NCBI GenBank assembly: GCA_964583685.1
Contig: CAZOVJ010000002.1
Span: 45,055-109,054 of the forward strand
Length of the DNA stretch: 64,000 bases
Direction: 5' to 3'
From: an uncultured Gammaproteobacteria bacterium
GTDB taxonomy: Bacteria > Patescibacteriota > Microgenomatia > UBA8517
Part shown: positions 6,813 through 25,907 of the stretch, piece after piece
How the letters are laid out: each line of letters opens with the position of its first letter
How positions within the stretch are numbered: position 1 is the first letter of the stretch
Made by a program: the position numbers and the translations under genes
Notes under the pieces: generated by a model
What the model saw: the letters and a program-made list of their open reading frames with translations, nothing else
Told to the model about the DNA's origin: nothing
The model's database searches: none

Positions 6813-6883
6813 TGCGGGGTGGTGTAATGGTAGCACACTGCTCTCTGGAAGCAGGAATCGGGGTTCGAATCCCTGCCCCGCAG
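6813..6883 (+). tRNA. tRNA-Gln (anticodon CUG); CCA not encoded
   Basis: Hand-folded cloverleaf: acceptor TGCGGGG/CCCCGCA with a U1-A72 pair, U8, D-stem GTGT/GCAC, anticodon stem CTGCT/AGCAG around loop CTCTGGA, T-loop TTCGAAT. A promoter-like TGGTAAAAT element lies upstream. Confidence 0.8.
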
Positions 6884-6989
6884 CACAGATTCAAGCGGCA
6901 CTATGTGGTCTCAAAAAAAGTCCTTATTTTTATTCTTGAAAAAAATTGATAATAAGCTATAATTCCAGGAAACGAATCAAAAGGCAGAA

Positions 6990-7512: not shown

Positions 7513-7650
7513 GGTTATGGGTTCGGAAGGTTCTAGCCCGGTATGCTCAGCCGAATTGGATACCTTTTTCATACTGTCTCACTTGTACTTTTATGGTAAA
7601 TTAGGAGTTATGGAGTTGTAAGGATAAAACAGGTCTAGGCCAGCTTACTC
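7513..7650 (+). repeat. Island repeat family, first copy: R-module (7513-7552), L-module (7565-7590), degenerate R-module (7626-7650)
   Basis: ggttatgggttcggaaggttctagcccggtatgctcagcc, then tttttcatactgtctcacttg, then caggtctaggccagcttactc. Confidence 0.7.
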
Positions 7651-7881
7651 TTTAATTACTTCGCAGTTATAGTGAATGAAGCTTAGTCTCATCAAACTCA
7701 TTATTTGAATGTTAATTCCAGAATTGGAAGCCTCGGGAGGGAAAATTTAAAGTAATATAAGCTTTTGTGCTTACATTGTCCTTCATTTTCTAAATCCCTC
7801 CCGAGGAGACCCGTGTAAAAGATTATTGATTCGAGTTGCTTATAACTCTTATCAACTTTTAACCTCCTACCCGAGTCTCCC

Positions 7882-9864
7882 CTACTGTTTCTCTTCAACA
7901 ACCTTACCGTCCTTTATTACAATCACCCTGTTAGCCATCTTTGCAAACTGCTCGTCGTGAGTGATAACCACCAAGGCTTTACCTTGCTGTCTGAGATCTT
8001 GAATCAACTTAGCCACCTTCAACATAGCAGCTGAGTCAAGACCAATTGTGGGTTCATCCAACACCAAAGTTGTAACAGCTGTGTTGCAGGACGCTATGGC
8101 CAACATTCTTACATCTGAAGGGTGCAGGTCCAGCGGACAAGTCAAAGGATTCAAACCTGTCCATTCAAGACCCCCCCTAACAAAGGCATCTGTATCCGAT
8201 TCAGACCACCCCAAGATCTTTGGACCAAAGCTAAGTTCTTCTTCAACAATCATGGCAGTTATCTGCAAAGCCGCATGTTGGAAAACGTAGCCCACCTGAC
8301 CCACCGTTTCTACCGTACCTTTAGCTGGTTTTATGGCACCAGCCAGGGTAAGCATGGCAGTTGTTTTGCCTGAGCCGTTGGGTCCCATAATGGCAACAAC
8401 CTCTCCCTCTTTCAAGGTAAGATCAATGCCTTTAAGGATTTCGTTTCCCTCGAGGGCTACATATACACCGTTCATTCGGGCAACAACATCGCCCAAGTCA
8501 CTTTTGGGATACTTCTCCGGCTGGTCTACAAGGTTGCAACGAGATAGCCACTCGTCGCTATTGAAGAAATTGTTTGGACTAAGGTCTGCCGTAAGTTTCC
8601 CCTCCTCTAGAACATAGACTCTATCAGTAAATCTAGCCAACTCTTGCCAAAATGGGTCGGCTATCACTACAGTGCAAGCTTGTTTGGACCGCAAGATACT
8701 GAGCGCTTCCATAAAGTCAACTCTACCCTGAGGATCAAGCTCCTGCATGGGCGAGTCCAGTAAAAGTGTCTTTGCCCCAGAGACCAAAGCTCCAGCCAAC
8801 ACCAGTCGTACTTGTTCACCGCCGGATAGCTTCGTTGTCTCACGATCCCACAACTCACCAATCCCCATAGTATCTAGAGCTTCTTTGGCTTCTTTCTCAT
8901 CTTTAGCTAAAAAAGAAATCTCTTGTCCCACTGTAAGACCGTATATTGAAGCAAAAGGATCTGGTGCAACATAGCGGGCAAAGCTGCATAAGGCAGACAA
9001 CGGTATCTCGTGGGCAAGCTTACCCGAAACCAATACCCCGCCTTTAAGCCCTCCCATAATCCAGGGAACGACCCCACCCATCACTCTTAAAAGAGTCGTC
9101 TTTCCCGCCGCATTCTTACCAGCGAGATAGACAAATTCGCCTGACCTAATGGTTAGACTTATGTCTTCAAGAACATCCGGAAGTCCAGGAGAATAACGAG
9201 CAAAGACATTCTTAAGTTTAATGTCTCCTTCCATCTGGCTTTCTTCTGTGTGGTGAGATTGAAAAGCAAGTGTTGCTTGCTGGGAATTTACTATAATCCG
9301 AGGGATGATGGCTACTGCCAAGGGCACAAGATTTTTAATATTGGCCCTAATTGAATCCCATCGTAAACCTCGGATAATTAGTGATTGAGTAAGGGCAACA
9401 AATTCCCGTCTGAGTATTTGTATGCCCCGCAAAATCCCTAAAGCCCATGTTCTTATGGGTTTAATCCAAGCAATCCCCCGATACATCTCTGGCGCCGGTG
9501 TTGAAAACAACCAGGCGAACGAGATCAACATCACCCCAGCAAGTCTTGAGCCGGTAACCAAACCGCGTTCTATTCCCACTGAATTGATTGTAAAGACAAA
9601 CCAGTGAATCCCACCGTACTCAGGGGGTGAAAGTATGGCGTTGTAAAGAAACACCATCCCGCCTGAGACTGGCGCAGCCAGAGCCAATTTCCAGTTCCTG
9701 TTGCTATTAGCAAGAAACAAAAGCAACCCTACTACTAGAAGGGAAATGGCTCCTGTTACGTTATTTATAAAGATAAACAACAGGCTCACTGTGAACACTA
9801 TGGCGAATCTCAATTCTGGTGGGAGAACACCTAAACCGAAACCTCTCTTTCTATTTGAGAACAT
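7882..9864 (-). CDS. ECF transporter, fused T component (EcfT/CbiQ-like) plus duplicated ATPase domains (EcfA-EcfA')
   Basis: N-terminal multi-TM region followed by two Walker A motifs (GKNAAGKTT and GPNGSGKTT) with LSGG signatures. GC is about 50 % or higher. Confidence 0.75.
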   Translation of the reverse strand: MFSNRKRGFGLGVLPPELRFAIVFTVSLLFIFINNVTGAISLLVVGLLLFLANSNRNWKLALAAPVSGGMVFLYNAILSPPEYGGIHWFVFTINSVGIERGLVTGSRLAGVMLISFAWLFSTPAPEMYRGIAWIKPIRTWALGILRGIQILRREFVALTQSLIIRGLRWDSIRANIKNLVPLAVAIIPRIIVNSQQATLAFQSHHTEESQMEGDIKLKNVFARYSPGLPDVLEDISLTIRSGEFVYLAGKNAAGKTTLLRVMGGVVPWIMGGLKGGVLVSGKLAHEIPLSALCSFARYVAPDPFASIYGLTVGQEISFLAKDEKEAKEALDTMGIGELWDRETTKLSGGEQVRLVLAGALVSGAKTLLLDSPMQELDPQGRVDFMEALSILRSKQACTVVIADPFWQELARFTDRVYVLEEGKLTADLSPNNFFNSDEWLSRCNLVDQPEKYPKSDLGDVVARMNGVYVALEGNEILKGIDLTLKEGEVVAIMGPNGSGKTTAMLTLAGAIKPAKGTVETVGQVGYVFQHAALQITAMIVEEELSFGPKILGWSESDTDAFVRGGLEWTGLNPLTCPLDLHPSDVRMLAIASCNTAVTTLVLDEPTIGLDSAAMLKVAKLIQDLRQQGKALVVITHDEQFAKMANRVIVIKDGKVVEEKQ

Positions 9865-9936
9865 TTTCCTCTCCCTTCCCTAAGGGAAATAGAGGAGACG
9901 GGTAGTGGTACTATCCGTCTCCCAGATCCGCATATC

Positions 9937-10698
9937 TCACTTGGCTATTCCGGCATCTCGTAATCGTTGGGTGTACATTGGTAGTAGGAATAGACCCAAG
10001 ATGGCAGAGACACTGTCTCCCATAAACCACCCTATTCCTGGATCAACCAGTGCCGCTGCAAACGGTTTCCCACCAACGGTTGCACCGATCGCGCCAATCA
10101 ATGCGCTTACCAGGCATATCAAGACGACGATAAGCAGAGCAGGTAGGAAATGTCGCGGGTTAAGCTCTAACCCCCCAAGCAGCAAACGTGCCCCAACTAC
10201 AAGCACTGCCAAGGGAATTAGAAATCCCCAGGGCATTACTAAGTTGAGGGATATGTTCAACAAACCTGCTGCTAAAACCAGGAGGGTCAAAATCATGACC
10301 CGAACGGCTCCGGTCAACACGTCAGATGGTTTCTTTGCCCCCAAAGTTGGATCGATTTTGAAGGCGGTGAACAGGAGAGCGGGCAACGCTGCGTTTGCGA
10401 GGCCGCCGGCAATTGGGTTCATGATAATATCCACGATACCCCAACCGCCGTACGCCAAAATTCCTGCCGCATAGGCTCCCAACCCCGCGGCTAGACAACC
10501 ATACCAAGGCCCCAGCCAGATGCCGGCAACAAGCTGCAAGGCCGCCGGAAGCCAGATAAAACTGGCTCCTTTGACAGTTGGCGATGATCCTACTGTCATC
10601 ATCACCCAGCCGATGGCGGCAATAGCCACGGCCATGCCGATAGTAAACATAAGTCGCAGTGCCGGGTCGCGCCTAACGACATATTCCGAAGTAGTCAT
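9937..10698 (-). CDS. ECF transporter substrate-specific (S) component, Gly/Ala-rich 6-TM protein (substrate unknown; folate-family is a guess from context)
   Basis: Hydrophobic small-residue-rich integral membrane protein directly upstream of the EcfT/A/A' gene; high GC. Confidence 0.5.
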   Translation of the reverse strand: MTTSEYVVRRDPALRLMFTIGMAVAIAAIGWVMMTVGSSPTVKGASFIWLPAALQLVAGIWLGPWYGCLAAGLGAYAAGILAYGGWGIVDIIMNPIAGGLANAALPALLFTAFKIDPTLGAKKPSDVLTGAVRVMILTLLVLAAGLLNISLNLVMPWGFLIPLAVLVVGARLLLGGLELNPRHFLPALLIVVLICLVSALIGAIGATVGGKPFAAALVDPGIGWFMGDSVSAILGLFLLPMYTQRLRDAGIAK

Positions 10699-10869
10699 TG
10701 GATCTTCTCCTTATTTGAACTTAGATCTATCGGACGGTTGGACACAAGTTTGCATAGAGCCTCCTTATTTGAAACAGCAGAGGAAGAAAACAGCCACATA
10801 GAAGTGACTATCTTTTCCCTCCACTGCTTCCAGTTCTGAAATCACTATTTAAATTTAATTGTTAATGTG

Positions 10870-11610
10870 CTAATTACCTTTTTGCATATTTCTTAATTCA
10901 GGAAGCAAAGAAATACTTTCAAATAGACGTGGATCCAGACGTTCCCAGTAAATCCCCTTCGGCTTTTGCTGGGTTTCTGAAACACGAATGAGGCGGCTAG
11001 GGGTAATAATAATGTCACAGAGAGTATCAAAAGGTTCTACTTGAAGTTCGTTCTCTGTCACTTGACAATCATGAACAAAAGCCACCACGGGTGTTTCCTC
11101 GCCAACCATACCTATTTCCCTCATCATTGCCCACTCAATATCGAAAAAGCCATGGCCCTTGCCATACCTCACTCCATTGATGCTTATAACAGATGCGCCA
11201 GTTATCAAAAAGTCAATTTCCCCTAACTTCTGAATGTCGGCAAGGGTTAATCTCTCCCCGAAACGCTCCATGCCATCCAATGAAGAAGCGTAGTTTTCTT
11301 GCCCTTGAGGCACCATTCCTCTCTCAAGCAAAATCATTCCACGACGAATACCATAAGTCGGCACAATCGCTTGTTTTGAATCTCGAATACTCTGGCTTCG
11401 TATCCCTTCTAAACAATTATCGGGTGTTATCAGTATCCGCTTTGATTCTCTATAAAGATCGAGATCCAATAAATGAGTCAGTGCCTGGTCACTCCCTTCA
11501 AAATCCGGGATAAATTCGGCAAAATTAAGATGATACCTACTGTCTGGCCTGGCAACCAGCGATAGCTGCTCCCAGACCCGCTCTCTTATCGTATCCCTTT
11601 CAGTTCTCAT
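10870..11610 (-). CDS. 5-formyltetrahydrofolate cyclo-ligase family protein
   Basis: GVRYGKGHGFFD matches the MTHFS G-G-G-YD motif. Confidence 0.6.
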   Translation of the reverse strand: MRTERDTIRERVWEQLSLVARPDSRYHLNFAEFIPDFEGSDQALTHLLDLDLYRESKRILITPDNCLEGIRSQSIRDSKQAIVPTYGIRRGMILLERGMVPQGQENYASSLDGMERFGERLTLADIQKLGEIDFLITGASVISINGVRYGKGHGFFDIEWAMMREIGMVGEETPVVAFVHDCQVTENELQVEPFDTLCDIIITPSRLIRVSETQQKPKGIYWERLDPRLFESISLLPELRNMQKGN

Positions 11611-11644
11611 TTTTAATCTCTTTCAGATATTCTTTATAAAACAA

Positions 11645-11680
11645 AAATCCTGCTTAAAGCAGGACAAACTAGTGTCTTTA
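11645..11680 (-). terminator. Rho-independent terminator downstream of the PRTase gene
   Basis: Perfect hairpin tcctgctt-taa-agcagga, followed on the minus strand by a T-run. Confidence 0.55.
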
Positions 11681-11789
11681 TAAAACAAAAAAAATGTTTC
11701 TTGTTGACTGCCATTCTATTAACAAAACTTTCCTGCGGCAAACAGGTTATTATTCTGTAATTTCAGACTATAAGGTTTTAATTTTTATG

Positions 11790-12320
11790 TCAAGAGCTGA
11801 AAACAGGAAGGGTATCTAAGTAGACCAAGTCTTGAAGGTCTTCATCCGTCCGGTCTCCTTGCTTAAAAACTGCCATATACATCACCGCTTTTGCCCCAAT
11901 GCCTTTCATCAATCCCTTTATCACCCGCATTGTGTATCCGGAAAAAATAACGTCATCAACTATAACTACTTTCTTGTTTTTGAGAAGTCTCGCATCCCTT
12001 CCATCCAGAACAAGCCCCTGTCTTCCTTTTGACTTTACTGGAGAAACCATATATCCATGGATCTTCTTTCTACAAACAACGTATTTAGGTTTACCGAGAA
12101 TCCTGGAGAGTTCATGAAGCAGAGGAACAACCTTAACTTCAGGCCCAACCAAATAGTCAAACTCTACACCCTTTAACTTCCTGAGTAACTTCTGGGCTAT
12201 AATTTCAACAAGTTCTTCATCCCCAAGTAAGTTAAAAGAGGCAACTTTTATTTTGGGACCCAGTGCCACAACTGGCAGCTTTCTCGCAACTTTCCCAACC
12301 CTTAAGGTATAAAAATCCAT
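11790..12320 (-). CDS. Type I phosphoribosyltransferase (purine PRTase-like)
   Basis: PRPP-binding motif VVIVDDVIFSGYTM. Confidence 0.7.
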   Translation of the reverse strand: MDFYTLRVGKVARKLPVVALGPKIKVASFNLLGDEELVEIIAQKLLRKLKGVEFDYLVGPEVKVVPLLHELSRILGKPKYVVCRKKIHGYMVSPVKSKGRQGLVLDGRDARLLKNKKVVIVDDVIFSGYTMRVIKGLMKGIGAKAVMYMAVFKQGDRTDEDLQDLVYLDTLPVFSS

Positions 12321-12559
12321 ATTATTACACTTTAACCAGATATCAGGGTTTTGTAAACGCTACGCAATGTTTTACTGGATCAATGAGTGAGTGAAAAGGG
12401 TGTATATTACGAGGTAAACATTAACACAGACAATATTTTCCAAAATTTTCTAACTACAAGATTATAAACAACACCGGTCTCCTAACTTTTTTACCAGATA
12501 CCCCTCGTCCTTATTAGGCATGCTTTGTTTATCGCTCGCAAACTTGATAAAATTCGATT

Positions 12560-13036
12560 ATGAGAAGAACAGGAGTCAGAGCAGTAGCGGTATTAACAAA
12601 AGGTGACAGAATACTTTTAATTCATAGAACTCGAGATAGTAAGGAATTTTGGGTTTTGCCAGGAGGCGGAGTAGAAAAGGATGAGAAAATTGAAGAAGCA
12701 GTTAGCCGTGAAGTTGAAGAAGAGACAAGCATCAAGTGTAAAATTGTTAAATTGCTTTATACACACGTTTATTCTGACCTTGGTCACAAACAATATTATT
12801 ACCTGTGTAAATACGTTTCAGGAACCCCCAACCTGGGGAAATTCAATGAATTCTATACAATGAAGGAAGAAAATCAGACTTACGCACCAGTTTGGGTAAA
12901 CATTGGAAACTTGCCAAAAATATTACTTTATCCTCTGGAAATTCGGGACTGGATTATTCAAGATTACAGAACAAACTTCGAGCACCCGCCTAAATCCGCG
13001 ACGTTAAAATCCACAAATCTCCGTCAAGAAACATGA
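12560..13036 (+). CDS. NUDIX hydrolase (paralog A)
   Basis: Nudix box GGGVEKDEKIEEAVSREVEEETSI; about 70 % identical to the 26461-26937 product. Confidence 0.8.
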   Translation: MRRTGVRAVAVLTKGDRILLIHRTRDSKEFWVLPGGGVEKDEKIEEAVSREVEEETSIKCKIVKLLYTHVYSDLGHKQYYYLCKYVSGTPNLGKFNEFYTMKEENQTYAPVWVNIGNLPKILLYPLEIRDWIIQDYRTNFEHPPKSATLKSTNLRQET

Positions 13037-13040
13037 GGCC

Positions 13041-13303
13041 TTTTTTTTATACTGTCTCATTCGTCTCACTTCAACTTTGCTAAGTGTTATAACATTCAGC
13101 CTCGAGCGTGACTTGGGAGTAAAGAAAAAATGGCTAGAGAAAGCAATTATTTTTAGAAGGTATGTAGATGATAAAAATGCAATCCCAAAAAACTTAAACT
13201 GGGGAAAGTGTGAAAAAGGTACAAAAATAGGAAGTATTGTGTAATTAGTACAATATGCCGTTAGTTATAATGATAGAAAGGTTCTAGACCGACCTGCTCA
13301 GCC
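13041..13303 (+). repeat. Island repeat: L-module (13041-13124) and R-module (13264-13303) separated by a 140-bp AT-rich insert
   Basis: ttttttttatactgtctcattcgtctcac...agcctcgagcgtga...ggagtaa // gttataatgatagaaaggttctagaccgacctgctcagcc. Confidence 0.75.
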
Positions 13304-13472
13304 AAATTGAGCACCCATATGTAGCCCATGTCTCTAGAAAATCCCATGTTTTCTATCAAAACGGCTATTTTTCTTTCAAACATTCGTACCACACGCTCAA
13401 TGTCCGTATAAATCCCCTAGTATTGACTGAGATAACCTTGAATGTTATATTGACGCACTGCCAATAACAAAC

Positions 13473-14402
13473 ATGGCAGCAAGAAAACAAAGAAAAACTA
13501 GCAGAAACAAGACGCCAAAACAATACACCGCTTCAGTATATACAGATCTGAAAGATGGCCATTTACCTTTAAAGTTGGCCAAGGCCATTCAAGCACTTGA
13601 AAAATCTCTCAAGAAGAAGGTCTTTATGGTAATTCAAAATGGAGAAGGGCCATATGGACAACTCGATGAAGCCCTGATTAAGAGGTTGAGAAAAGAAGTC
13701 GACAATATTCCTCGAGAGCTGGCTTTGCTGATTGATTCTCCAGGTGGTTACGCAATAGATGCATATAGGCTGTCTGTGTTGCTTAGAAAGGTTAGTCCAA
13801 AATATCTGGCCTTGGTTCCCCGATACGCTAAAAGTGCAGCAACCCTAGCCGTATTGGGAGCAGGCCAGATAATGCTAGGCAGTTTTGGTGAATTAGGACC
13901 ATTGGATGCTTGGTATTATGATCCAGAGAAGGAAGAGAGGATCTCGGCTCTAGACGAAGTTCAAGCATTAGAGCGCTTACACGCCTTCTCTCTTGAGGCC
14001 ATAGACTCTACAATGATTCTGTTAGGAAAAAGGGCTAATAAAAAAATTAGCACACTCTTGCCACTTAGCTTAAATTATATCTGTGGTTTATTAAAACCAA
14101 TTTTCGAGAAAATTGACGTTGTTCATTATACCCGATCTTCAAGGGTGCTCTTGGCGGCGGAAGAATATGCGGCTAGGTTGCTCTCTGGAAAATATTCTAA
14201 AAAAAGAGCAGAAGAAATTGCGAGGCACTTAACAGAGATGTATCCTGAACATGGTTTTTCCATAAACATTGAAGAAGCGGAACGAATAGATGCTGACTTA
14301 GTTGTTGTACCATCAGAGGAACAAGATGCTATAATGAAAAAGATAGTGGAATATTTAGAAAGTGATATTAACATAATTGGTACAATTGAAGAAGCAAAAT
14401 AA
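13473..14402 (+). CDS. ClpP/crotonase-fold serine peptidase (S49/SDH-like)
   Basis: LIDSPGGYAIDAYRL...AKSAATLAVLGAGQIMLG resembles the S49/SDH active-site region. Confidence 0.5.
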   Translation: MAARKQRKTSRNKTPKQYTASVYTDLKDGHLPLKLAKAIQALEKSLKKKVFMVIQNGEGPYGQLDEALIKRLRKEVDNIPRELALLIDSPGGYAIDAYRLSVLLRKVSPKYLALVPRYAKSAATLAVLGAGQIMLGSFGELGPLDAWYYDPEKEERISALDEVQALERLHAFSLEAIDSTMILLGKRANKKISTLLPLSLNYICGLLKPIFEKIDVVHYTRSSRVLLAAEEYAARLLSGKYSKKRAEEIARHLTEMYPEHGFSINIEEAERIDADLVVVPSEEQDAIMKKIVEYLESDINIIGTIEEAK

Positions 14403-14651
14403 TGTTTTCTAAACGAAAAAAGATTGAAAAGCCAAAGGCGAGTGTGGGTGAAACAACCCACGCTGTAGTTGAAACTTCAATAAAACTAGCTAAAAAGTCG
14501 AAAAAGAAATGGGAATTTTTTCGAAGCAAACCTTCAGGAAATAAACTTTCATTGTGGTTTAAGTACTAGTAATAGGCGTTATTATTGTACCCCCCAACCG
14601 CACGTAAGTTACGACGAGAACACTCAGTGTAAACGTTTCTGGTAAAATTAG

Positions 14652-15293
14652 ATGAGTTATAAGGATATAAAGGTCCTAGCCCGGCCTGCTCAGCACCACT
14701 TTTTAACCTCAAAAAACTTTATTAAACCGAACAACCCCATCTGGGATTCGAAACCTCTCCCTGCTGTGCAATGTTTAGATACAAACCGGGTATGGTATAC
14801 TCACACTCAAACAATGACAGAACGACCATTTGAATCTCCTGAATTTGAGAAAAGAGCAGAGGCTTTTATTGAAGAAGTTCGAACTGAAACTCAGTCAAAC
14901 GATGATTCTCGGTATCGTCAGGTAAGTAGTGTTAGGGTGGGCAAGTATCTTCCAGGGGCAATTAGAGGTCTGGATAAGTTACAATCTTTAGTTGATTATG
15001 CCAAAACAGAGTTTACCCTTAGACCTCGCTACCTGTCGGATGTGTATGATATAAAATCTGCAAACTCGTGTGTTGTTGAGTTTAGTGCAACATTTAACTC
15101 AAGACGCGCTCTTGGTAGGTTTGTAGAAAGAATACTGCAAATAGCCGAGGCCCACGGGGGACAAATAGATGAAACAATACTCCCTTTACTGACTACTGTT
15201 AGAGAAGATGATTATATTAGAGCACAGCGAGGTAACTATGGTTACCATTTTCGTACTTTGCTCTTTTTCGAGTTTTCCAGCTCTGCCGAGTGA
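14652..15293 (+). CDS. Hypothetical protein; the true start is probably the in-frame ATG at 14814, because the first 40 codons overlap the repeat R-module
   Basis: ORF; the in-frame Met at 14814 (MTERPFESPEFEKRAEAF...) lies downstream of the repeat. Confidence 0.45.
   Translation: MSYKDIKVLARPAQHHFLTSKNFIKPNNPIWDSKPLPAVQCLDTNRVWYTHTQTMTERPFESPEFEKRAEAFIEEVRTETQSNDDSRYRQVSSVRVGKYLPGAIRGLDKLQSLVDYAKTEFTLRPRYLSDVYDIKSANSCVVEFSATFNSRRALGRFVERILQIAEAHGGQIDETILPLLTTVREDDYIRAQRGNYGYHFRTLLFFEFSSSAE
14656..14694 (+). repeat. Island repeat R-module
   Basis: gttataaggatataaaggtcctagcccggcctgctcagc; it overlaps the annotated 5' end of ORF 14652. Confidence 0.7.
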
Positions 15294-15425
15294 ATAACTT
15301 ATATCATTCCTCATTAGTTTGCATAAGAATGGAGAAACTGTTGTGATTACTGGTAAACTAATTCAGGATAAGGAATAATTTCTGTCCAGTTTGCAGTTCG
15401 GAAATCGTCAGGTAGTGCCAGCACT

Positions 15426-15465
15426 TTTTTTATACTGTCTCATCTCTTCAACTTTTACGTCCACA
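15426..15465 (+). repeat. Island repeat L-module (solo), preceded by the small hairpin agtgc-ca-gcact
   Basis: tttttttatactgtctcatctcttcaacttt. Confidence 0.65.
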
Positions 15466-15501
15466 TTGATAAATAAACCTTAGTTTATGTAGAATGAATG
15501 T

Positions 15502-15960
15502 ATGATTAAACTTATTGCCTCAATCGTCATTTGTCAGCTGGCTGGAATTATTGGAGCTTTTTTTACTACTCCCTCGATTTCTGGTTGGTATGCTAGCCTT
15601 AACAAACCTTTTTTCAATCCACCCAGCTGGTTATTTGGTCCCGTCTGGATCTTGCTATATTTACTAATGGGAGTTTCTCTGTATTTAGTTTGGAGTCAAA
15701 AAAATCAAGCAGGAAAAAAACTTGCCCTAACCATTTTTGCAATTCAACTGGGGCTTAACAGTTTTTGGTCAATTGTCTTCTTTGGCCTACAGTTGCCCTG
15801 GGTAGCATTTTTGGAAATCCTGGTGCTTTTGTTTTTTATTGTTTTAACGATTGTTAAGTTCTTTCCAATATCAAAAATATCAGCTTACCTTTTAATTCCC
15901 TATCTTTTGTGGGTGAGTTTTGCCAGCCTTCTTAATCTTTACATTGTTAAACTGAATTAG
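15502..15960 (+). CDS. tspO: TspO/MBR family tryptophan-rich sensory protein
   Basis: GWYASLNKPFFNPPSWLFGPVWILLY is a hallmark of TspO. Confidence 0.8.
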   Translation: MIKLIASIVICQLAGIIGAFFTTPSISGWYASLNKPFFNPPSWLFGPVWILLYLLMGVSLYLVWSQKNQAGKKLALTIFAIQLGLNSFWSIVFFGLQLPWVAFLEILVLLFFIVLTIVKFFPISKISAYLLIPYLLWVSFASLLNLYIVKLN

Positions 15961-15967
15961 AAATCTC

Positions 15968-16062
15968 TTTTTTATACTGTTTCATTTGTCTCAATTAGCT
16001 TCGATTATGATACACTTGGAGTAATTGATTATGGGCTCGAAAGGGTCCAGACCTACCTGCTT
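15968..16062 (+). repeat. Island repeat: compact L+R element
   Basis: ttttttatactgtttcatttgtctcaattagcttcgattatgatacacttggagtaattgattatgggctcgaaagggtccagacctacctgcttgc. Confidence 0.75.
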
Positions 16063-16093
16063 GCTAACTTAAACATTTAATCTGTTTAAAAAA

Positions 16094-16657
16094 ATGGTAG
16101 AAGATATTGTTAGTAAAATATCGGGTGAGCTTAGTAGAGGCATAGACTCTGAGCCTCAGGTACTTTATTTGCTTGTTGAAATTAGAAAAATAAGACAAGC
16201 GAATGTCGATCAAGCAAATTTAGGAAGTAGTAAAACATTCTTAGACTTTTACCGTGACTGGGCTTGTCATGTAGAGTTGACTCACAATGATGCCGTCGAA
16301 ACATTCCTTAACAGATTCGAGGTTCTAGTAAATCCAAGCTTAACAGCCCATGAAATAGCTAGAAGTTTTATTAGTCATTTCCCATCCTTTTTCAAGCTCG
16401 ACGAGTTGAGAAATGAACTAAGAGGTTTCTTTAAAGATAAGGAGTTAACAACTGAACTAACTGATGACCGGGGAAAATGGTATACGTTCGTCAAACATCT
16501 ATTAGGCATTCTAAAGAACTGCAGTATAAAGCGATTGCGTTCCAATGGAAAAATTGAGGAACTTACTTTAGAAGTCGATGGTCAAGGGAATGCAAAATTT
16601 AAATTTCGCCTTAGAGGAAGAAAAGATTGCCCCGTTTGTAAATTGAAATGGAAATAG
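16094..16657 (+). CDS. Hypothetical protein; distant paralog of the 28090-28560 product
   Basis: Shared blocks SEPQVLYLLVEIRKI / SEIQVVFILSKIRKL and FYRDWACHVELTH / FYCNWVLHNKIDR. Confidence 0.5.
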   Translation: MVEDIVSKISGELSRGIDSEPQVLYLLVEIRKIRQANVDQANLGSSKTFLDFYRDWACHVELTHNDAVETFLNRFEVLVNPSLTAHEIARSFISHFPSFFKLDELRNELRGFFKDKELTTELTDDRGKWYTFVKHLLGILKNCSIKRLRSNGKIEELTLEVDGQGNAKFKFRLRGRKDCPVCKLKWK

Positions 16658-16672
16658 TTCTAATGAGTCCCA

Positions 16673-16860
16673 AGAGTGTTACACTTGGAGTAATCGATTA
16701 TAGGCTCAAAAGGTTCTAGACCGGCCTGCTCAATTATCTGGGATTAAGAACCTCAGGCACGACGTCCAGTTATGAGGACAAGTTGGGTCTAGACCGACCT
16801 GCTTCAATTATTTCGGAATCAGAACCCTAAGCACAGTGTCCAATTATCAGGATTAGAAAA
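16673..16860 (+). repeat. Island repeat: truncated L-module plus two tandem R subunits (about 60-70 bp each)
   Basis: gtgttacacttggagtaatcgattataggctcaaaaggttctagaccggcctgctcaattatctgggattaagaacc...gggtctagaccgacctgcttcaattatttcggaatcagaaccc... Confidence 0.75.
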
Positions 16861-16949
16861 CTTTAGAACAAGGAGCTTCAGTTAAAAATTTAGCTAAAAT
16901 ATACCAAATTCGAAAATAAGATCCGAACTCTAGATTCAGGAATTTATAT

Positions 16950-18173
16950 TTATAGTAACTCTAGGGCTGCTCTCACGTAAATTTCTAAAACCCTAGTTAG
17001 TGAAGAAAGTTCTAGATACTCGTCAGCAGAATGTACTCCATCTCCTTCGGCTCCAAAACCACAAACCATTGGAATACCTGCTTTAACAAACATATATCCT
17101 TCATTCCAAGGACCACAACCTCGAACTTCTGGGGTGATATTCATAACTTCCTTGTCTAACTTCTTAAGAATTTTAACCAAAGGTTCTTTTGGGGATATTA
17201 CTACCCCTGGAACATTATTTTTAATTGTCAATTGAAATTTAATCTTTTCTTGCTCACATTCTTGAGCTAGTTTTCTAATCTTTTCTATATACTCTTTGTT
17301 GCTGTGATTAGGTAATAATCGAGCATCAAGTAAAACTTTAGCTCTATCAGGAACAATTGATTCTCCACTTCCACCTTGTAATAATGTTGGAGTTAAAACA
17401 AAACCGTAACCAGGAAAGGCAGGATGAACATTGGGTATTGTTATTTCCGATAGACGATCTATAAAACGAACCACTGCTTTAATTGCATTAGCTCCTTTTT
17501 TCTTATTTTGCCAACTACTCGAACCTGTATGAACTGCTTCACCTGTAAACTCAACCCAAATGCGGACACCACCACGATGACCAATGGTTATCGTTTCAAC
17601 CCCAGGATAAGTATAAATAGCGGCTTTGGCTTGAAGACCTTTTTCTAACAAATATTTTGCTCCTAGTTTTGAGTCGGCTCCACTTTCTTCATCAACAACA
17701 CCAACAAATTTGGCAAGTTCTGGCTTACCTAAATCCTTAAGTATCCTTAAGGCATAAAGAGATAAAGCAACTCCAGCTTTACAATCAATTGCCCCCCTAC
17801 CATAAAGTCTTTCGTCTTTAACTTCAGCTCCAAATGGCTTATATTTCCACTTTTTTTCATCACCTACTGGAACAGTATCAAGATGAGCTACAAATAAAAG
17901 TCCTAACCTAGATTTAAAGTTTGTCCCAACAAAAACATTCGGTCTGTCCCCCTCCAACGCTACTAGTTTATGTGCTAGTCCTAACTTTTCGGCTTGAGAA
18001 GCAACTAACTTAGCTATTTTTCTTTCAGTGTTTTGCCCATTTACTGAAGGTGTTTTTACTAAATCTTTACAGAAACTAACCAAATCATGCTCATAATCCT
18101 GAGTCAAATTTTGAATTTTTGAAATTTCTAATCGTTTAACCATCAAAATATTATACCAAATTACATTCTTCAT
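16950..18173 (-). CDS. M20 family metallopeptidase (ArgE/DapE-like)
   Basis: HLDTVPVGDEKKW...GRGAIDCKAG metal-binding motifs. Confidence 0.75.
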   Translation of the reverse strand: MKNVIWYNILMVKRLEISKIQNLTQDYEHDLVSFCKDLVKTPSVNGQNTERKIAKLVASQAEKLGLAHKLVALEGDRPNVFVGTNFKSRLGLLFVAHLDTVPVGDEKKWKYKPFGAEVKDERLYGRGAIDCKAGVALSLYALRILKDLGKPELAKFVGVVDEESGADSKLGAKYLLEKGLQAKAAIYTYPGVETITIGHRGGVRIWVEFTGEAVHTGSSSWQNKKKGANAIKAVVRFIDRLSEITIPNVHPAFPGYGFVLTPTLLQGGSGESIVPDRAKVLLDARLLPNHSNKEYIEKIRKLAQECEQEKIKFQLTIKNNVPGVVISPKEPLVKILKKLDKEVMNITPEVRGCGPWNEGYMFVKAGIPMVCGFGAEGDGVHSADEYLELSSLTRVLEIYVRAALELL

Positions 18174-18202
18174 TTATAATAGAAGCGATTGTGATTAATA
18201 AG

Positions 18203-18282
18203 CTCAATTTTCTCGGAATCAGAACCCTAGGCATACGGTCCAGTTATAAGGACTAAATTGATCTAGACCGAGGAGCTGCTAG
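18203..18282 (+). repeat. Island repeat R subunit
   Basis: gctcaattttctcggaatcagaaccctaggcatacggtccagttataaggactaaattgatctagaccgaggagctgc. Confidence 0.7.
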
Positions 18283-18360
18283 TAAAAAGTGATAATCCTG
18301 GGGCGTGAAGCTAATCCACACTTGGTGTGGGAAAGTGCCACATTTTTAACTTGCGATATT

Positions 18361-19986
18361 TTACGTTTTTTCCTTAATCATGCGTCTGAGTGCTTCTTCT
18401 GAAAACCCAAGTTCGTCAGCTAAAAGAACGCCATGGCTTGCCTGGGCCATACCCGGCACAATTTTATATGAAGGGATTATTTTGCCTTTATCGATTTGAA
18501 ATTCTGTTTGCATATTTTGAATGCCTTCCCATTCGTCAACTGCACTTACAACTTCATGAAGGTGTGTGGCGATATAGGTAGGAGCACCAAGCCTTCTTAA
18601 GGCAGAGATAAGCCGTAGCGATATCTCTATAGCATCCTGGGGCGAGGTGCCTTTTATTGGTTCATCTATAAGGAAAAATGTCCTTTTGCTGGCAAACATA
18701 AGGGCTTCCTTTAAACGTCGTAACTCATCGGCAAATCCACCTTCACCACGCTCAATATCTTCAGGGTGGGTAAAATGTGTGCCAATACCGTCAAACTGGC
18801 GGATATCTGCGGTTGTTGCAGGAATAGGAAAACCACTATGTGCAAGAACGAGTGCAAGTCCAACCGCCTTTATATATACAGATTTCCCCGTATTGTTTGG
18901 ACCTGTAATAATAGTAACATTACTATCTGGAAGAGATACTGCGTCGTTTGGCACCATGCCACGGCGTGAGAGAATTACATCTTCTTGCGTAAGCAGACAG
19001 GGGTTATAAAGACCTTTAATATCAAAGTGTACATCAAGGTTCTCTTGTATTGTTGGGAATAGTACAGGTAAGTTATGTGACCTGAGTACGTCAACATAGC
19101 GGGTAGCCCCCAAGAAAAAATCCGCCTTCCTGCGAAAAGTAAGGAACTCTCCGACAATAGACAAATTGCGCTTAGTGAGAAGATCAAATGCTTCAGCGAA
19201 TTTCTTTTCTCCTTCTTCAGGGTATTCGGAAGTAAACCCAGATAACATCAGGAACTTACACTTTACATCCAATGTTCGAAGGGCCCACCGGACAAGTTCT
19301 TTCCACTGTTCACTCTTAGAGTATTGAATATTTTCAACGCCATAAACTGTATCGAAGTAGTCATATTTCACTCGTAATGTTCCTTGACCAAAATTATCCA
19401 TCGAATCAAGAAGACCCAAAGCGGTTTGGTAGTCTTTATTGTTGACTATAATATTTTGACGCTCGCAAAGCTTATCAAATACAGGTGATTGGCATGGTAT
19501 AGAGTCAACCGCTTTTACGCTACCCGCAAGAGTAGCAAGAATAAGGTAGTCAACGGCGATGAGCTTCTTAACTTCTCTTCTGGATGAAAGATTGATATAT
19601 TGTTTCGGTTCCAGATTTCCAAGAAGCTCAAGGCGTTTTTTAGAAGCATCAACACATGCGTATGAACAAACGATAAAGGCGTCAACGGCCTCTCGGGCAG
19701 ATGGATTTTCCAAAAGCTCACTAATTGCCTTACGGTACGCTTCGCACTCTTTTGAGGGCTTAAAGTTTATAAGTTCGTGAGTCATAAATTCGACAGAATC
19801 CTCAGGTCTATACGGTCGAATGAATGAATTTACGAAAAGCGGCAAATCAATATCCTCTATAGCCCGTTCGACTGTAGGATAGTTTTCTTTTCTGGAAAGA
19901 CCTAAGGGTTCAACCTCTGGTTTTGGCATATCAAAGCTAAGGGGCAAGGCGTAGCAAAAGCAGAAATTATGATGTGAGCATAACAC
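18361..19986 (-). CDS. MutS-domain-V ATPase lacking the mismatch-recognition domain (MutS-related); the true start may be the Met at 19929
   Basis: Walker A ITGPNNTGKSVYIKAVG, plus FLIDEPIKGTSPQD...ATHLHEV, which matches the MutS ABC ATPase core. Confidence 0.65.
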   Translation of the reverse strand: MLCSHHNFCFCYALPLSFDMPKPEVEPLGLSRKENYPTVERAIEDIDLPLFVNSFIRPYRPEDSVEFMTHELINFKPSKECEAYRKAISELLENPSAREAVDAFIVCSYACVDASKKRLELLGNLEPKQYINLSSRREVKKLIAVDYLILATLAGSVKAVDSIPCQSPVFDKLCERQNIIVNNKDYQTALGLLDSMDNFGQGTLRVKYDYFDTVYGVENIQYSKSEQWKELVRWALRTLDVKCKFLMLSGFTSEYPEEGEKKFAEAFDLLTKRNLSIVGEFLTFRRKADFFLGATRYVDVLRSHNLPVLFPTIQENLDVHFDIKGLYNPCLLTQEDVILSRRGMVPNDAVSLPDSNVTIITGPNNTGKSVYIKAVGLALVLAHSGFPIPATTADIRQFDGIGTHFTHPEDIERGEGGFADELRRLKEALMFASKRTFFLIDEPIKGTSPQDAIEISLRLISALRRLGAPTYIATHLHEVVSAVDEWEGIQNMQTEFQIDKGKIIPSYKIVPGMAQASHGVLLADELGFSEEALRRMIKEKT

Positions 19987-20010
19987 AGAATGACTTTTGT
20001 GACAATAATA

Positions 20011-20125
20011 TTTGTTTCATTTGTCTCACTTCGCTTTGCTCAGTGTTATAACATTCAGCCTCGAACGTGATACAATCGGAGTAATCGGTTATGGGCTCGA
20101 AAGGTTCTAGACCGACCTGCTCAGC
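20011..20125 (+). repeat. Island repeat: compact L+R element
   Basis: tttgtttcatttgtctcacttcgctttgctcagtgttataacattcagcctcgaacgtgatacaatcggagtaatcggttatgggctcgaaaggttctagaccgacctgctcagc. Confidence 0.8.
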
Positions 20126-20155
20126 AATATAATCTTTTTGTTATAATACAAATAT

Positions 20156-20659
20156 ATGACACAAACAGATTTACTAAAAAAGATTCAAGATAAACTTAAA
20201 TCCGAAGGGTACGAAGTAAAATCTGATGTTAAATATGGAGATTACACATTTCCCGTAGTTGGTAGGTTGAGTAAGTTTGAGCTTAGCAAGTTTGGTAAAG
20301 CTGATTATTTTGTAGTTGTTGGTGTTGCGCAAGAAGCAAAGCTGTCCGATTTAAGAAGTTTTTCAAGTCAAGCCTATGAGTATGCTGGGAGCAACAGGTC
20401 AACTTCTATGCCCCCAGGCCTAGGCGCGAGCTTTTTTACATTTCCAGTGCTAATTGTAAACAAAGCAGAAGAAAGTGTTGTTGAAGGAGTGAAAAATGGA
20501 ACACCACCCAAACACTGGTCATCTACAGAATTTCCAACAATAGTGGATTTAACTACAGGAAAGATGCACTATTTCACTGGTACTCCAGCTTGGGGTGCAG
20601 CCTATTGGGAAAGTTTCAGAAGGTTAGTAAATAAAGTCATCCCCGTTACAGTTGGTTAA
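20156..20659 (+). CDS. Hypothetical protein (167 aa)
   Basis: ORF. Confidence 0.45.
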   Translation: MTQTDLLKKIQDKLKSEGYEVKSDVKYGDYTFPVVGRLSKFELSKFGKADYFVVVGVAQEAKLSDLRSFSSQAYEYAGSNRSTSMPPGLGASFFTFPVLIVNKAEESVVEGVKNGTPPKHWSSTEFPTIVDLTTGKMHYFTGTPAWGAAYWESFRRLVNKVIPVTVG

Positions 20660-21055
20660 GCCATTCCTTTATTGCTTCTTATGTTGATTCAAGTGTGTTG
20701 TGCAATTTCGTAGTTAATGATATTTGAAATTATAATTTGGTATAACTGCGGGCTGTTGTTGATATAATAAATAAGTTCGAATAGCGTCTATGCTCGCCAG
20801 CAAACTGAGATTTGAACTCCAAAGCTACCCTCCAGCATGATCGGAGAATAATAAATACAGAAAATAATGTAGGAATTTCTTTGTAATAATCGCGAAAAAC
20901 CTTAATTTTATGCAGTTATAATGATATTTTGGTTCGGGACCTATTTCTATCGCACAACATTCGATGGATTAGATATCTACTTAACTCATCTACAATAGAG
21001 AAAATTTTAGAAAAAATGAAATAAGAGCCTATAGCATGGTAAAATCCTCATTACT

Positions 21056-21976
21056 ATGGTTGAAAGAAAGCGTTTCGGTACGATAGAATCTTCCCCAAAA
21101 AGCAGAGGTTCAATCGATCTCGAACTTGGTGAAAGAATTAAGATCCCGTTTACTGGGGCAGAAATCATTTATGCAACTACTATCTCCGGAGATAAGGTGG
21201 TAGTTAAAAAACCACTAAACAACGATCGGGCTAGACATGAATGGGAAGGTCTTAATACAGTAGAATCGACAGGTATTTCTATCCCAAAACCTGTTGCGCT
21301 AATAAGCTATTCAGAGGACCAACTGGCTATTGTATCTAGTTATGTTGAAGGCGATAAATTGTATGATAAACCAAACCCTGATGTAAAAGCAGAAGTTGGA
21401 AGGCAAATTAAAAAAATGCACCAAAGTGCACAGATTGTCGGTGAAGATTGGCTATCTAGTGGTCGAAGCTCATTTCTTTACTATGATAGATATATTTATA
21501 GGTGGTCTAGGGGAAATATCGAAGAGCTGAAAGCAGACGGTAGGACTGCTTCAATATTAGGAGAACTTACCGATGCTGCGGATCAATTCTGTACGCACTC
21601 AGAACCAACATTCAACCACAACGATTTACATGATGGGCAAGTTATCGTAGATGGAAAAGGAAAACCAACAATCATAGATTTTGGAAATTGGACAGAAGAA
21701 ACTTGGATGAACGATATCGGTTATCACTTGTTTCACCTTGTCAGAACTGACAGAGTAGGTGCTGATGACTTTACAAACTTTTTAAACGGATACATGGAAG
21801 GCAAAAAAATGACTGATAAAGAAAAATCAAATTTGGCTTTTTACTTGCTTTTTATATCATCAAGAGCACTAAATTATTTTTACAGAAGACATAGCTCATA
21901 CTTGCCTGTTGCACAAGAGACTCACGAAAAAGTGTTGGCTCATCTTGAAAATGAATCAATCTGGAAAGATTATTAG
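21056..21976 (+). CDS. APH/ChoK-family small-molecule kinase (aminoglycoside-phosphotransferase-like)
   Basis: Catalytic loop HNDLHDGQVIVD and IDFGNW, the Brenner and DFG-like motifs of the APH family. Confidence 0.65.
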   Translation: MVERKRFGTIESSPKSRGSIDLELGERIKIPFTGAEIIYATTISGDKVVVKKPLNNDRARHEWEGLNTVESTGISIPKPVALISYSEDQLAIVSSYVEGDKLYDKPNPDVKAEVGRQIKKMHQSAQIVGEDWLSSGRSSFLYYDRYIYRWSRGNIEELKADGRTASILGELTDAADQFCTHSEPTFNHNDLHDGQVIVDGKGKPTIIDFGNWTEETWMNDIGYHLFHLVRTDRVGADDFTNFLNGYMEGKKMTDKEKSNLAFYLLFISSRALNYFYRRHSSYLPVAQETHEKVLAHLENESIWKDY

Positions 21977-22620
21977 CCCTTTTTTTCTAGAAGCTTAAAA
22001 TGAGAGTAATCGTTGATGTAATTTACTTTCCAGGATTTCCTTTGACTGCTGTAAATCAGGAGAGAGATACCTGTGTAGTTTATTGTTAGTGTTCTAATAA
22101 CTCTTGCCATCATCTCATCCGAATAATTATTCCCTAATATAACCATACTTATAAAACATCTGATAAACACGTCATGCGATACGACCAAAATTCGTTTTCC
22201 TTTATATTTTTTCCTTAAGAAACTTGAGAGTTTATCCGCTCTGCCTAGGACTTCTCTCACTGATTCCTCCTTATTTTTAAACTTCCAATCAAGATTTCTG
22301 TAGTTTGCGTAATATTCTTTAACATATTCTCTTGAAATCTTACTGTTTCTATCTGCTCCATACATTTGAGGTAATTGCATTCTTTCGTGTATGTAATCTA
22401 GAGTCTCTGTTTTAATTTTCAGATTACCAGAGAGAATTTCTGTAGTTTTTCTTGACCTTTCCCATTTACTTGAAAAGATTTTGTCTAATCGGGAGAATCT
22501 GGATCTTTGACTTAAAACCTCTGCTTGTTTTTCACCAAACTTGCCCAGTTTGGAGTCAGGAGTCTGCCACTGGTTTCTGGGGGTTTCGCTACTTGCGTGT
22601 CTAACTAAGAACAATAACAT
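21973..22620 (-). CDS. Histidine phosphatase superfamily protein (PGAM-like), last gene of the RiPP operon
   Basis: LFLVRHASSE (RHG-type) and ILVVSHDVFIR (SHG-type) motifs. Confidence 0.55.
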   Translation of the reverse strand: MLLFLVRHASSETPRNQWQTPDSKLGKFGEKQAEVLSQRSRFSRLDKIFSSKWERSRKTTEILSGNLKIKTETLDYIHERMQLPQMYGADRNSKISREYVKEYYANYRNLDWKFKNKEESVREVLGRADKLSSFLRKKYKGKRILVVSHDVFIRCFISMVILGNNYSDEMMARVIRTLTINYTGISLLIYSSQRKSWKVNYINDYSHFKLLEKKG

Positions 22621-22627
22621 CTTATCC

Positions 22628-23398: not shown

Positions 23399-23399
23399 G

Positions 23400-24710: not shown

Positions 24711-24772
24711 AAAAAATACACCTAACCATAGCAGGTTTTGTTAGTCAAGACTATTAATAAATAACTGATTAG

Positions 24773-25009
24773 TTATTTACCTAGTCTATTTTCGGCACAA
24801 TCACAGCCACAGCTCGCACAGCTTGAACAGCTGCCACAACTACCACCACCACAAGCACAGCTTGAACAGTCTCCGCAACTCTGATCACAATCAGAGGCAC
24901 GTACTACACCTTTGGTAGCTTCTGCTTTAATATTTGTGTCGTTTTGCTGGGGCATGGCATCAGCTAAATCTCTCGTTTCTCTTATAACTTCACTCGTCAT
25001 TTTTCTCAC
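24773..25009 (-). CDS. TOMM/LAP-type RiPP precursor peptide (78 aa) with a Cys/Ser/Gly-rich core
   Basis: Core SCGDCSSCACGGGSCGSCSSCASCGCDCAENRLGK; a strong RBS GGAGGGGGTGAG lies 7 nt upstream; it sits immediately upstream of YcaO. Confidence 0.7.
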   Translation of the reverse strand: MRKMTSEVIRETRDLADAMPQQNDTNIKAEATKGVVRASDCDQSCGDCSSCACGGGSCGSCSSCASCGCDCAENRLGK

Positions 25010-25905: not shown

Positions 25906-25907
25906 TT

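Follow-up and report, generated by a model that had tools for sequence, protein, structure and literature searches.

Genes and Repeats at the Locus

The 64,000-nucleotide (nt) stretch of DNA analyzed here (the window) belongs to contig CAZOVJ010000002.1 of an assembly labeled as an uncultured Gammaproteobacteria bacterium (GCA_964583685.1). It encodes two NUDIX proteins of 158 amino acids (aa), NUDIX-A and NUDIX-B, and each gene is followed at once by a copy of a short repeat, the L-module. This module is the 5' part of a sequence-conserved junction unit of ~108 nt that comprises three modules (L, M, and R). Sites of the R-module delimit an array of genes that lies to the right of a tRNA-Gln(CTG) gene and occupies positions 7513-37862. 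The features on which the analysis turns are the following.

6813..6884, + strand: tRNA-Gln(CTG) at the left end of the array (ARAGORN and Rfam)
7513..37862, + strand: putative cassette array, ~17 gene-bearing units between R sites
12560..13036, + strand: NUDIX-A, 158 aa, intact NUDIX box
26461..26937, + strand: NUDIX-B, 158 aa
33495..33932, + strand: NUDIX-C, 145 aa, a single-gene unit between R sites 33430-33470 and 33944-33977

An initial annotation of the window had described NUDIX-A and NUDIX-B as about 70% identical, with the L-module no more than 5 bp beyond each stop codon, and had noted a third, more divergent NUDIX gene at 33495. Each of these descriptions was confirmed. The two proteins share 108 of 157 residues in a gap-free BLASTP alignment (69% identity, E 9e-72), and the genes are 71% identical at the nucleotide level, while NUDIX-C is 28% identical to NUDIX-A. 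The stop codon of NUDIX-A ends at 13036 and is followed after 4 nt by the T-run of the L-module at 13041 and then by ATACTGTCTCAT; that of NUDIX-B ends at 26937 and is followed after 5 nt by TTTTTTATACTGTCTCAT at 26943.

Membership in the NUDIX family was judged by a Pfam domain above the gathering score together with the NUDIX box (GX5EX7REUXEEXGU). All three proteins match PF00293 well above its gathering cut-off of 21.1 (NUDIX-A, E 1e-18, 68.1 bits; NUDIX-B, E 1.4e-19, 70.8 bits; NUDIX-C, E 1.9e-14, 54.3 bits), and the box is legible in the translation of NUDIX-A (G-GVEKD-E-KIEEAVS-RE-V-E-EE-T-S-I), where S replaces the penultimate G. NUDIX-A and NUDIX-B thus resemble known NUDIX hydrolases in their fold, as judged by domain detection, and in a box with catalytic glutamates, but differ from them in that the 158-aa subfamily was seen solely in Patescibacteria-type metagenomic sequences. 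Among solved structures, the best matches to this subfamily reach only E 7e-10 and extend along its N-terminal half alone, and a substrate can therefore not be assigned.

A Co-Oriented Repeat Delimits the Array

A profile built from the window identified 21 R sites (E <= 0.01), or ~26 if weaker copies are included. All 21 profile matches are on the + strand and within 7513-37862; the profile search of the window revealed no R copies on the - strand or in the 34 kb of flanking core genes. The orientation of the enclosed genes is irrelevant to that of the sites, with ~14 array genes being encoded on the - strand. The cargo is accessory in character and includes NUDIX, GNAT, methyltransferase, APH, AadA-like nucleotidyltransferase, and toxin-antitoxin genes.

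The individual junction units and partial units that were delineated are as follows.

13040..13124, + strand: L+M part after NUDIX-A, with its R part ~140 nt further on
13264..13304, + strand: R site closing the NUDIX-A unit
15960..16067, + strand: complete L+M+R after TspO, an unrelated gene
16640..16736: partial L+M+R
20014..20127: complete L+M+R
26938..27042, + strand: complete L+M+R after NUDIX-B
27039..27230, + strand: three gene-less tandem R units of 58, 58, and 72 nt, unit types also present in loci L016, L042, and L067
37755..37862, + strand: complete L+M+R after an ATP-grasp gene

The minimal site is the R-module of ~34 nt, which reads TATGGG..AAAGG.TCTAGACCGACCTGCTCA|GC, and the consensus of the complete unit reads cc.TTTTTATAcTGTCTCATTTGTCTCATTTAGCCT..A..gTGATACACTtgga..a...a..TATgGG....aA.GG.tCtAGACCGaCCTGCTCAGC. 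Information content falls abruptly right after GCTCA(GC), which gives the unit a sharp 3' boundary. The L part, which contains TGTCTCA twice as a direct repeat, starts directly past the last gene's stop codon. Allowing up to two mismatches, the L motif TATACTGTCTCAT has eight matches in the window as compared to 1.1 expected from shuffled sequences. These copies are not specific to NUDIX genes, since they also follow TspO (15965), the ATP-grasp gene (37760), and orf213 (15423), with a further copy at 7560. The L-module begins 3-5 nt past the stops of NUDIX-A, NUDIX-B, and TspO, and the R-module ends 17-54 nt ahead of several start codons.

Tandem units without a gene, 58 or 72-75 nt long and each with an R core at its end, occur at 27039-27226, 29797-29868, 33395-33466, and 16733-16880 and could represent empty cassettes or duplications of the site. 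The 72-nt unit has a tRNA-like size, yet no tRNA fold was detected in it. Two mechanically called open reading frames (ORFs), 14652-15293 and 27184-28074, have starts that read through R sites (for 14652, the public call does so as well); their true starts probably lie downstream, and the public call for the second starts at 27280.

Occurrence in Other Genomes and Cassette Breakpoints

The sequences used for comparison were all metagenomic assemblies, and taxa were assigned from the source names of homologs and the titles of loci. The exact R-core pattern matched 33 stretches in the genome collection, of which ~20 were low-GC metagenome-assembled genomes (MAGs) of the Patescibacteria type, namely Woesebacteria, Shapirobacteria, Microgenomates, Saccharibacteria, and several small, low-GC MAGs labeled 'uncultured Gammaproteobacteria'. 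Some of these MAGs contain several co-oriented copies per 8 kb. The entire L+M+R unit is present in at least 12 other low-GC genomes of the Patescibacteria type. It was absent from plasmid and phage collections, and its matches in viral contigs resemble chance matches in high-GC phage DNA.

Four of the low-GC MAGs (35-38% GC) that bear Patescibacteria-type arrays are titled 'uncultured Gammaproteobacteria' (L011, L012, L033, and L042), a label that is probably wrong. Among these, L012 is syntenic with core genes of the window and L033 derives from a 548-kb contig; OZ246397.1 is a 615-kb chromosome in which 6-7 co-oriented R-site matches lie within 8 kb.

The L-module (86% identity) is more conserved than the coding DNA that it adjoins. 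For example, the L-module behind NUDIX-B is 100% identical to that of L074, as compared to ~79% identity across the homologous segment of 1173 nt. That segment comprises a His_Phos_1 gene, NUDIX-B, and L+M+R, and in both sequences it ends at the R end, which in the window is exactly position 27038. A cassette with the ATP-grasp gene is shared with L033 in its entirety at 85% identity, the shared segment beginning 55 nt past one R end and stopping no more than 2 nt from the R end that follows. Loci L067 and L068, from two assemblies, are 99.6% identical over 3.5 kb, beginning 1 nt past ...AGACCGACCTGCTCA in L068; to the left of the shared segment, L067 has unrelated DNA without an R site. Variant sites were also identified: the array of L071 has 14 co-oriented copies of sites such as AGTTCCTGACAAAGTTTACTAGCCCCTGC(TCA), some of which end in ..CTGCTCA, and L071 and L074 have in common a 97%-identical cassette that starts in a variant site. 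At a larger scale, the genes that border the array of the window border much smaller or different arrays in relatives.

Of the eight independent genomic contexts of the 158-aa NUDIX gene, six have it directly next to an L-module (window A, window B, L067/68, L069/70, L074, and L075). The remaining contexts are L073 and L071/72, with the NUDIX gene flanked by variant repeats in the latter. In L069, the order is tRNA-Gln, orf205, ppa, NUDIX, L+M+R, a radical SAM gene, and a RimK-type gene. In L039 and L021, sites are preceded by NUDIX genes that are more distantly related. NUDIX ranks first among the Pfam families of the array loci (10 of 141 ORFs), a count that is inflated in that 6 of the 20 loci had been fetched by NUDIX queries. 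A metagenome scan for relatives of the NUDIX genes recovered distant, repeat-free relatives only, the back-translated patterns being too degenerate. The 158-aa NUDIX family appears to be a recurrent cargo at the 3' ends of cassettes.

The initial annotation had also argued that the repeat is a cassette-associated element rather than a chromosomal landmark. This view is upheld by the co-orientation of the R sites and their confinement to one 30-kb region, by the three inter-genome comparisons that end no more than 2 nt from the 3' end of an R site, and by the recurrent contact between the NUDIX gene and the L-module.

Age of the Split Between NUDIX-A and NUDIX-B

It had further been proposed that a NUDIX gene and its L-module had been duplicated together, with the copy placed at another site of the same genome. 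When the two regions are aligned locally at the nucleotide level, homology starts at both ATG codons (12560 and 26461) and ends 32 nt into the L-modules (13071 and 26971); no similarity between NUDIX-A and NUDIX-B was detected upstream of these codons. Upstream of NUDIX-A and NUDIX-B, the closest R sites end at distances of 4.9 and 5.5 kb, respectively, and none adjoins an ATG. Breakpoints away from module boundaries had been named beforehand as the result that would count against copying as a unit, and the 5' breakpoint is indeed off any module boundary.

Dating by synonymous divergence (dS), which had also been suggested, shows that the split is not recent, since dS is saturated (3.07 with the NG86 estimator and 1.21 with LWL85; overall range, 1.2-3.5). 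Third codon positions are 48% identical, 13 of 39 four-fold degenerate sites are identical (33%), and nonsynonymous divergence (dN) is 0.19, for a dN/dS of 0.05-0.15. Because dS is saturated, neutral flanks of the two genes would no longer be recognizable.

Closer relatives of each gene exist elsewhere. There are 58 database homologs of the 158-aa NUDIX genes, all from Patescibacteria-type sequences, and NUDIX-B has relatives at 82-83% identity in other metagenomes. When relatives are ranked by similarity, NUDIX-A is 24th of 52 for NUDIX-B, and NUDIX-B is 18th for NUDIX-A. The L-modules of the two genes are alike at 27 of 32 nt (84%), while mean identity among L-modules is 86% between genomes and 84% within the genome. 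The similarity of the two L-modules therefore reflects constraint on the repeat rather than co-duplication. The conserved partners also differ: NUDIX-A has an upstream region of its own, whereas NUDIX-B is paired with His_Phos_1, as it is in L074 and L075.

12504..12559, + strand: promoter-like conserved region upstream of NUDIX-A-type genes, homologous with L067, L069, and L073
25908..26459, + strand: His_Phos_1 gene, its stop 1 nt ahead of the NUDIX-B ATG

In L067, L069, and L073, homology of the A-type genes begins 41-56 nt ahead of the ATG, in a region of ~45 nt, and the upstream neighbor of NUDIX-A is a divergent phosphoribosyltransferase gene.

Duplication of NUDIX and L-module as a mobile unit would account for the equal lengths and 69% identity of the two proteins, for the same repeat at the same offset past each stop, and for the adjacency kept in other genomes. 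It is nevertheless quite improbable given a 5' breakpoint with neither upstream homology nor an R-module, closer relatives of both copies in other genomes, L-L identity no higher than the family background, and different conserved partners; a recent event is refuted by the saturated dS. The pair thus displays none of the low dS, flank homology, or mutual closest relationship that mark a recent segmental or cassette duplication. NUDIX-A and NUDIX-B are anciently diverged, separately evolving members of a Patescibacteria-specific 158-aa family. We lean toward the explanation that both genes abut an L-module because cassettes are built in this way, rather than through recent copying. Since the NUDIX-L adjacency is conserved in other genomes, an ancient NUDIX+L+M+R cassette may possibly have been the source of both lineages.

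Anchoring at tRNA-Gln

Among 25 related loci, the only tRNA gene found was tRNA-Gln(CTG), in five loci, in each of which the R sites lie downstream of it and in the same orientation. If the window is included, this arrangement holds in all six loci that contain any tRNA (6/6). Over its final 25 nt, the R consensus agrees with the 3' ends of tRNA-Gln at 14-17 of 25 positions as compared to ~7 in shuffled sequences, a level attained by no more than 8 of 5000 shuffles.

A further link to the tRNA is provided by a sequence of ~115 nt that follows the R end at 13300, which we term the D-module.

13301..13420, + strand: D-module, a copy of the 3' flank of tRNA-Gln in L067

The D-module recurs past an R end in L068 and also lies directly 3' of the tRNA-Gln gene in L067. 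The R+D sequence of the window is colinear with the T-arm, acceptor end, and flank of the L067 tRNA-Gln (score 90 versus 19.6 +/- 3.2 in shuffles, z = 21.9), in a register that equates GCTCA|G-CCA with position 72 followed by the discriminator and CCA. The D-module is stronger evidence for a link to the tRNA than the similarity of R itself, which is modest.

The D-module motif (..GTCTCTAGAAAATCCC...CAAACATTCGTACCACAC..) follows either a tRNA-Gln gene or an R end. Copies were located in the window (13301-13420), L067 (4401-4500 and 5708-5810), L068 (5708-5810), and L035 (~1130-1263), and in L067 and L035 it also occurs without an R ahead of it. The possibility that R is a real tRNA was rejected, as ARAGORN gives tRNA-Gln only and the R profile misses the tRNA.

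A direct repeat of 93 nt (91% identical) at 3280-3372 and 6750-6842 comprises the region upstream of tRNA-Gln and the first ~30 nt of the gene. Its breakpoint is at the anticodon loop, and a truncated 5' copy of tRNA-Gln therefore remains 3.4 kb leftward of the intact gene, with Cu-oxidase_4, CTP_transf_like, orf415, and pyrophosphatase genes between the two copies. This has the appearance of a different, second type of insertion or rearrangement event at this tRNA.

Structure, Regulatory Signals, and Recombinases

Several identities for the junction unit were considered and rejected. The first was an attC site or structured RNA: folds of single units (eight as RNA, four as bottom-strand DNA) gave z-scores of -2.7 to +1.05, mostly near 0, and RNAalifold returned no consensus structure on either strand for 17 complete units from at least 12 genomes. 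The RYYYAAC/GTTRRRY pair was not seen in the junction-unit consensus. In the window, only tRNA-Gln and RNase P reach an Rfam gathering score, and a relaxed Rfam search (E up to 10) of 26900-27300 returned nothing meaningful. With regard to a promoter or terminator, a consensus scan showed no enrichment of sigma-70-type promoters or intrinsic terminators and did not pick out the modules. A small ORF in R (MGSKGSRPTCSA) was likewise discarded, as R-only variants lack the ATG or have an in-frame TAG.

Recombinases were sought in ~50 ORFs of the window with Pfam, and in 10 and 9 unannotated ORFs with PHROGs and NCBIfam, respectively, and none was found. A crude scan for tyrosine-recombinase motifs across all loci also revealed none. 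Likewise, none is among the 25 commonest families in the Pfam census of the 141 array-locus ORFs, a census in which singletons could be missed. An integrase could be encoded elsewhere in the genome.

Other Features of the Window

GC content is 0.45-0.47 at 8000-12000, as compared to ~0.37 in the surrounding array. This segment is part of the NUDIX-A unit, and its genes, all on the - strand, encode an ABC/CbiQ fusion, a membrane protein, a 5-formyltetrahydrofolate cyclo-ligase, and a phosphoribosyltransferase. The unit closed by NUDIX-B includes a cluster on the - strand (22628-25009) that resembles those for thiazole/oxazole-modified microcins. Its members are a YcaO gene (23400-24710), a gene for a nitroreductase-type protein (22628-23398), and one for a Cys/Ser/Gly-rich peptide of 78 aa (24773-25009) that contains ...SCGDCSSCACGGGSCGSCSSCASCGCDC... 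and has 39-nt internal repeats.

A 60-nt repeat (83% identical) at 29285-29344 and 36018-36077 contains a GC-rich hairpin (GTCTGCCCCCTCCTTAGGCGGGCAGAC) and lies upstream of two small array ORFs. Just to the right of the last R site are two overlapping ORFs, 37932-38219 (95 aa) and 38212-38760 (182 aa), the first of which has an HGHNDH motif. Together they suggest the halves of one gene of the metallo-beta-lactamase fold, disrupted by a frameshift or decayed to a pseudogene.

Interpretation of the Array

We interpret positions 7.5-37.9 kb of the window as a hypervariable array of gene cassettes that is anchored at tRNA-Gln(CTG) in the chromosome of a member of the Patescibacteria (candidate phyla radiation, CPR), with an estimated probability of roughly 0.55. 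What has been shown is the layout of the array, the polarity of its sites, their conservation among genomes, the position at tRNA-Gln, the breaks in homology at R ends, and the antiquity of the NUDIX split, while the chemistry of recombination, the functions of L and M, and the enzyme are inferred. The repeat behind the NUDIX genes would, on balance, be the standard junction element of such cassettes in Patescibacteria. Mechanistically, the cassettes may be small circular elements that lack an integrase of their own and depend for insertion and excision on a site-specific recombinase that acts in trans. By analogy with tRNA-targeting elements, that recombinase would most likely be a tyrosine integrase. 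Crossover would take place at the 3' edge of R, which would mimic the T-arm and acceptor end of tRNA-Gln, and L+M+R would act as an attR-like site, with L and M providing an arm that bears the two TGTCTCA direct repeats and R providing the core.

A number of observations weigh against this interpretation. None of the tested ORFs in the 64-kb window could be recognized as an integrase, resolvase, or transposase, and none was detected within ~3 kb downstream of tRNA-Gln in the four loci L021, L037, L038, and L069. The R sites are without the obvious dyad symmetry that is typical of recombinase core sites. They are just 56-68% identical to the 3' ends of the resident tRNA-Gln genes, a similarity that is largely that of a generic T-loop, and the R profile does not match tRNA-Gln. 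The left edges of the NUDIX-bearing homology blocks are at divergent promoters rather than at R sites, and a base-exact junction is available from one near-identical pair only (L067/L068), both members of which are metagenomic assemblies. Finally, no strain-level rearrangement was observed in the window's own population, where 13 of 13 contigs are colinear, and thus no ongoing mobility was seen.

Three other explanations for the modules were weighed against site-specific recombination, and each is weaker. The modules could be portable homology, with cassettes being swapped by RecA-dependent homologous recombination after DNA uptake. Patescibacteria encode competence machinery, the L-module (~33 nt, 86-100% identity) and R have a length sufficient to initiate recombination, and the scans described above found no recombinase, all of which accord with such exchange. 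It nevertheless predicts breakpoints inside the repeats rather than at a sharp 3' edge, and it leaves the cassette of L067, which has no R on its left, without an explanation. Strict strand polarity and anchoring at tRNA-Gln in six of six loci are not predicted by it either, and the conservation of sequence across distant genomes is unexplained; we therefore regard homologous exchange as unlikely.

Reused expression signals, with L serving as a 3' end or terminator, R serving as a promoter, operator, or leader, and the array consisting of horizontally acquired genes, are improbable as well. The positions of the modules fit such a role, in that L with its T-run starts 3-5 nt past stops and R, whose sequence includes TATAAT-like hexamers and a GGTCTAGACC palindrome, ends 17-54 nt upstream of several starts. 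Yet all sites are on the + strand in spite of the ~14 genes on the - strand, the 34 kb of core genes are without any site, and gene-less tandem units and homology breakpoints at R ends have no place in this explanation; nor are sigma-70-like promoters and intrinsic terminators enriched or an RNA structure conserved. That the modules are a selfish family resembling MITEs (miniature inverted-repeat transposable elements) or repetitive extragenic palindromic (REP) sequences, which colonized intergenic DNA irrespective of the genes between, is very improbable. The repeats are multi-copy and intergenic and break short-read assemblies, with contigs ending within units, as would be expected of such a family. 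They have, however, no terminal inverted repeats, target duplications, palindromic stems, or folds. Instead of being dispersed on both strands, the copies in the window are perfectly co-oriented on one strand, clustered in one region, and anchored at one tRNA, and the family is missing from plasmid and phage collections, its viral-contig matches having the appearance of chance.

Relation to Known Systems

The interpretation as a tRNA-anchored cassette array invites comparison with two kinds of known system. The first comprises tandem islands targeted to tRNA genes, such as the tRNA-targeting tyrosine-integrase elements whose sublocation classes were reportedly set out by Williams in 2002 and the tycheposon islands of Prochlorococcus that Hackl et al. 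are said to have described in 2023. Like these, the array is anchored at one tRNA gene and contains co-oriented repeats that resemble the 3' part of the tRNA, although the similarity of R is modest and partly that of the T-loop. Further likenesses are the presence of the tRNA flank as a displaced copy (the D-module), variable accessory cargo, and cargo-only units without an integrase of their own. Differences are that the repeats, rather than duplicating the resident tRNA (56-68% identity), form a family of their own across many genomes, that an extra arm of ~70 nt (L+M) is present, and that the units are very small, often with one gene. In addition, no integrase was seen in the window or related loci, including the end of the island in the window and in four other loci, where an element-encoded tyrosine integrase would be expected.

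The second kind comprises sedentary chromosomal integrons and clusters of attC sites lacking integron-integrases (CALINs). In common with these, the array consists of many small cassettes of accessory genes with a conserved, co-oriented site at each 3' end starting from the stop codon, and it exhibits strict site polarity, a sharp boundary at the 3' edge of the site, and length variants of the site. The cargo is also similar (GNAT, NUDIX, toxin-antitoxin, and aminoglycoside-modifying enzymes), and CALINs, too, have no adjacent integrase. In contrast to attC, the sites are conserved in sequence rather than structure; there is no R''/L''-L'/R' inverted repeat, GTTRRRY, or intI, and neither the folds, RNAalifold, nor the consensus revealed an attC hairpin. 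None of the ~50 window ORFs scanned with Pfam has a Phage_integrase domain, as required for intI, which defines a complete integron but is not needed for a CALIN. Several units are multi-gene, with genes on both strands, and the array is anchored at a tRNA. In the absence of a fold and an integrase among those searched for, the array thus fails the defining tests of attC sites and integrons despite its integron-like layout. By analogy, the system would work like tandem tRNA-anchored islands while being laid out like an integron or CALIN.

Implications for Patescibacteria

The genomes of Patescibacteria are tiny, and little is understood of the ways in which these bacteria acquire and rearrange accessory genes. 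We tentatively suggest, as a possibility that is somewhat doubtful at present, that they carry a lineage-wide functional analog of the integron. Such a system would be anchored at tRNA-Gln, would consist of mostly single-gene cassettes with a ~108-nt, sequence-defined site that mimics the tRNA, would depend on a recombinase encoded elsewhere, and would have the 158-aa NUDIX family as common cargo. Searches of the accessible literature on integrons, CALINs, and cassette arrays in Patescibacteria, and for the junction sequences, returned no description of such arrays.

For the NUDIX genes, the question shifts from the date of a duplication to why this family is such a frequent terminal cargo and why it sometimes pairs with a histidine phosphatase. 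More broadly, a searchable junction sequence that marks the boundaries of cassettes at tRNA-Gln would provide a handle with which to catalog the flexible gene pool of these organisms, spanning NUDIX, GNAT, methyltransferases, enzymes of the aminoglycoside-modifying type, and toxin-antitoxin genes. It would also explain the fragmentation of these loci in short-read assemblies and would help to locate the recombinase responsible.

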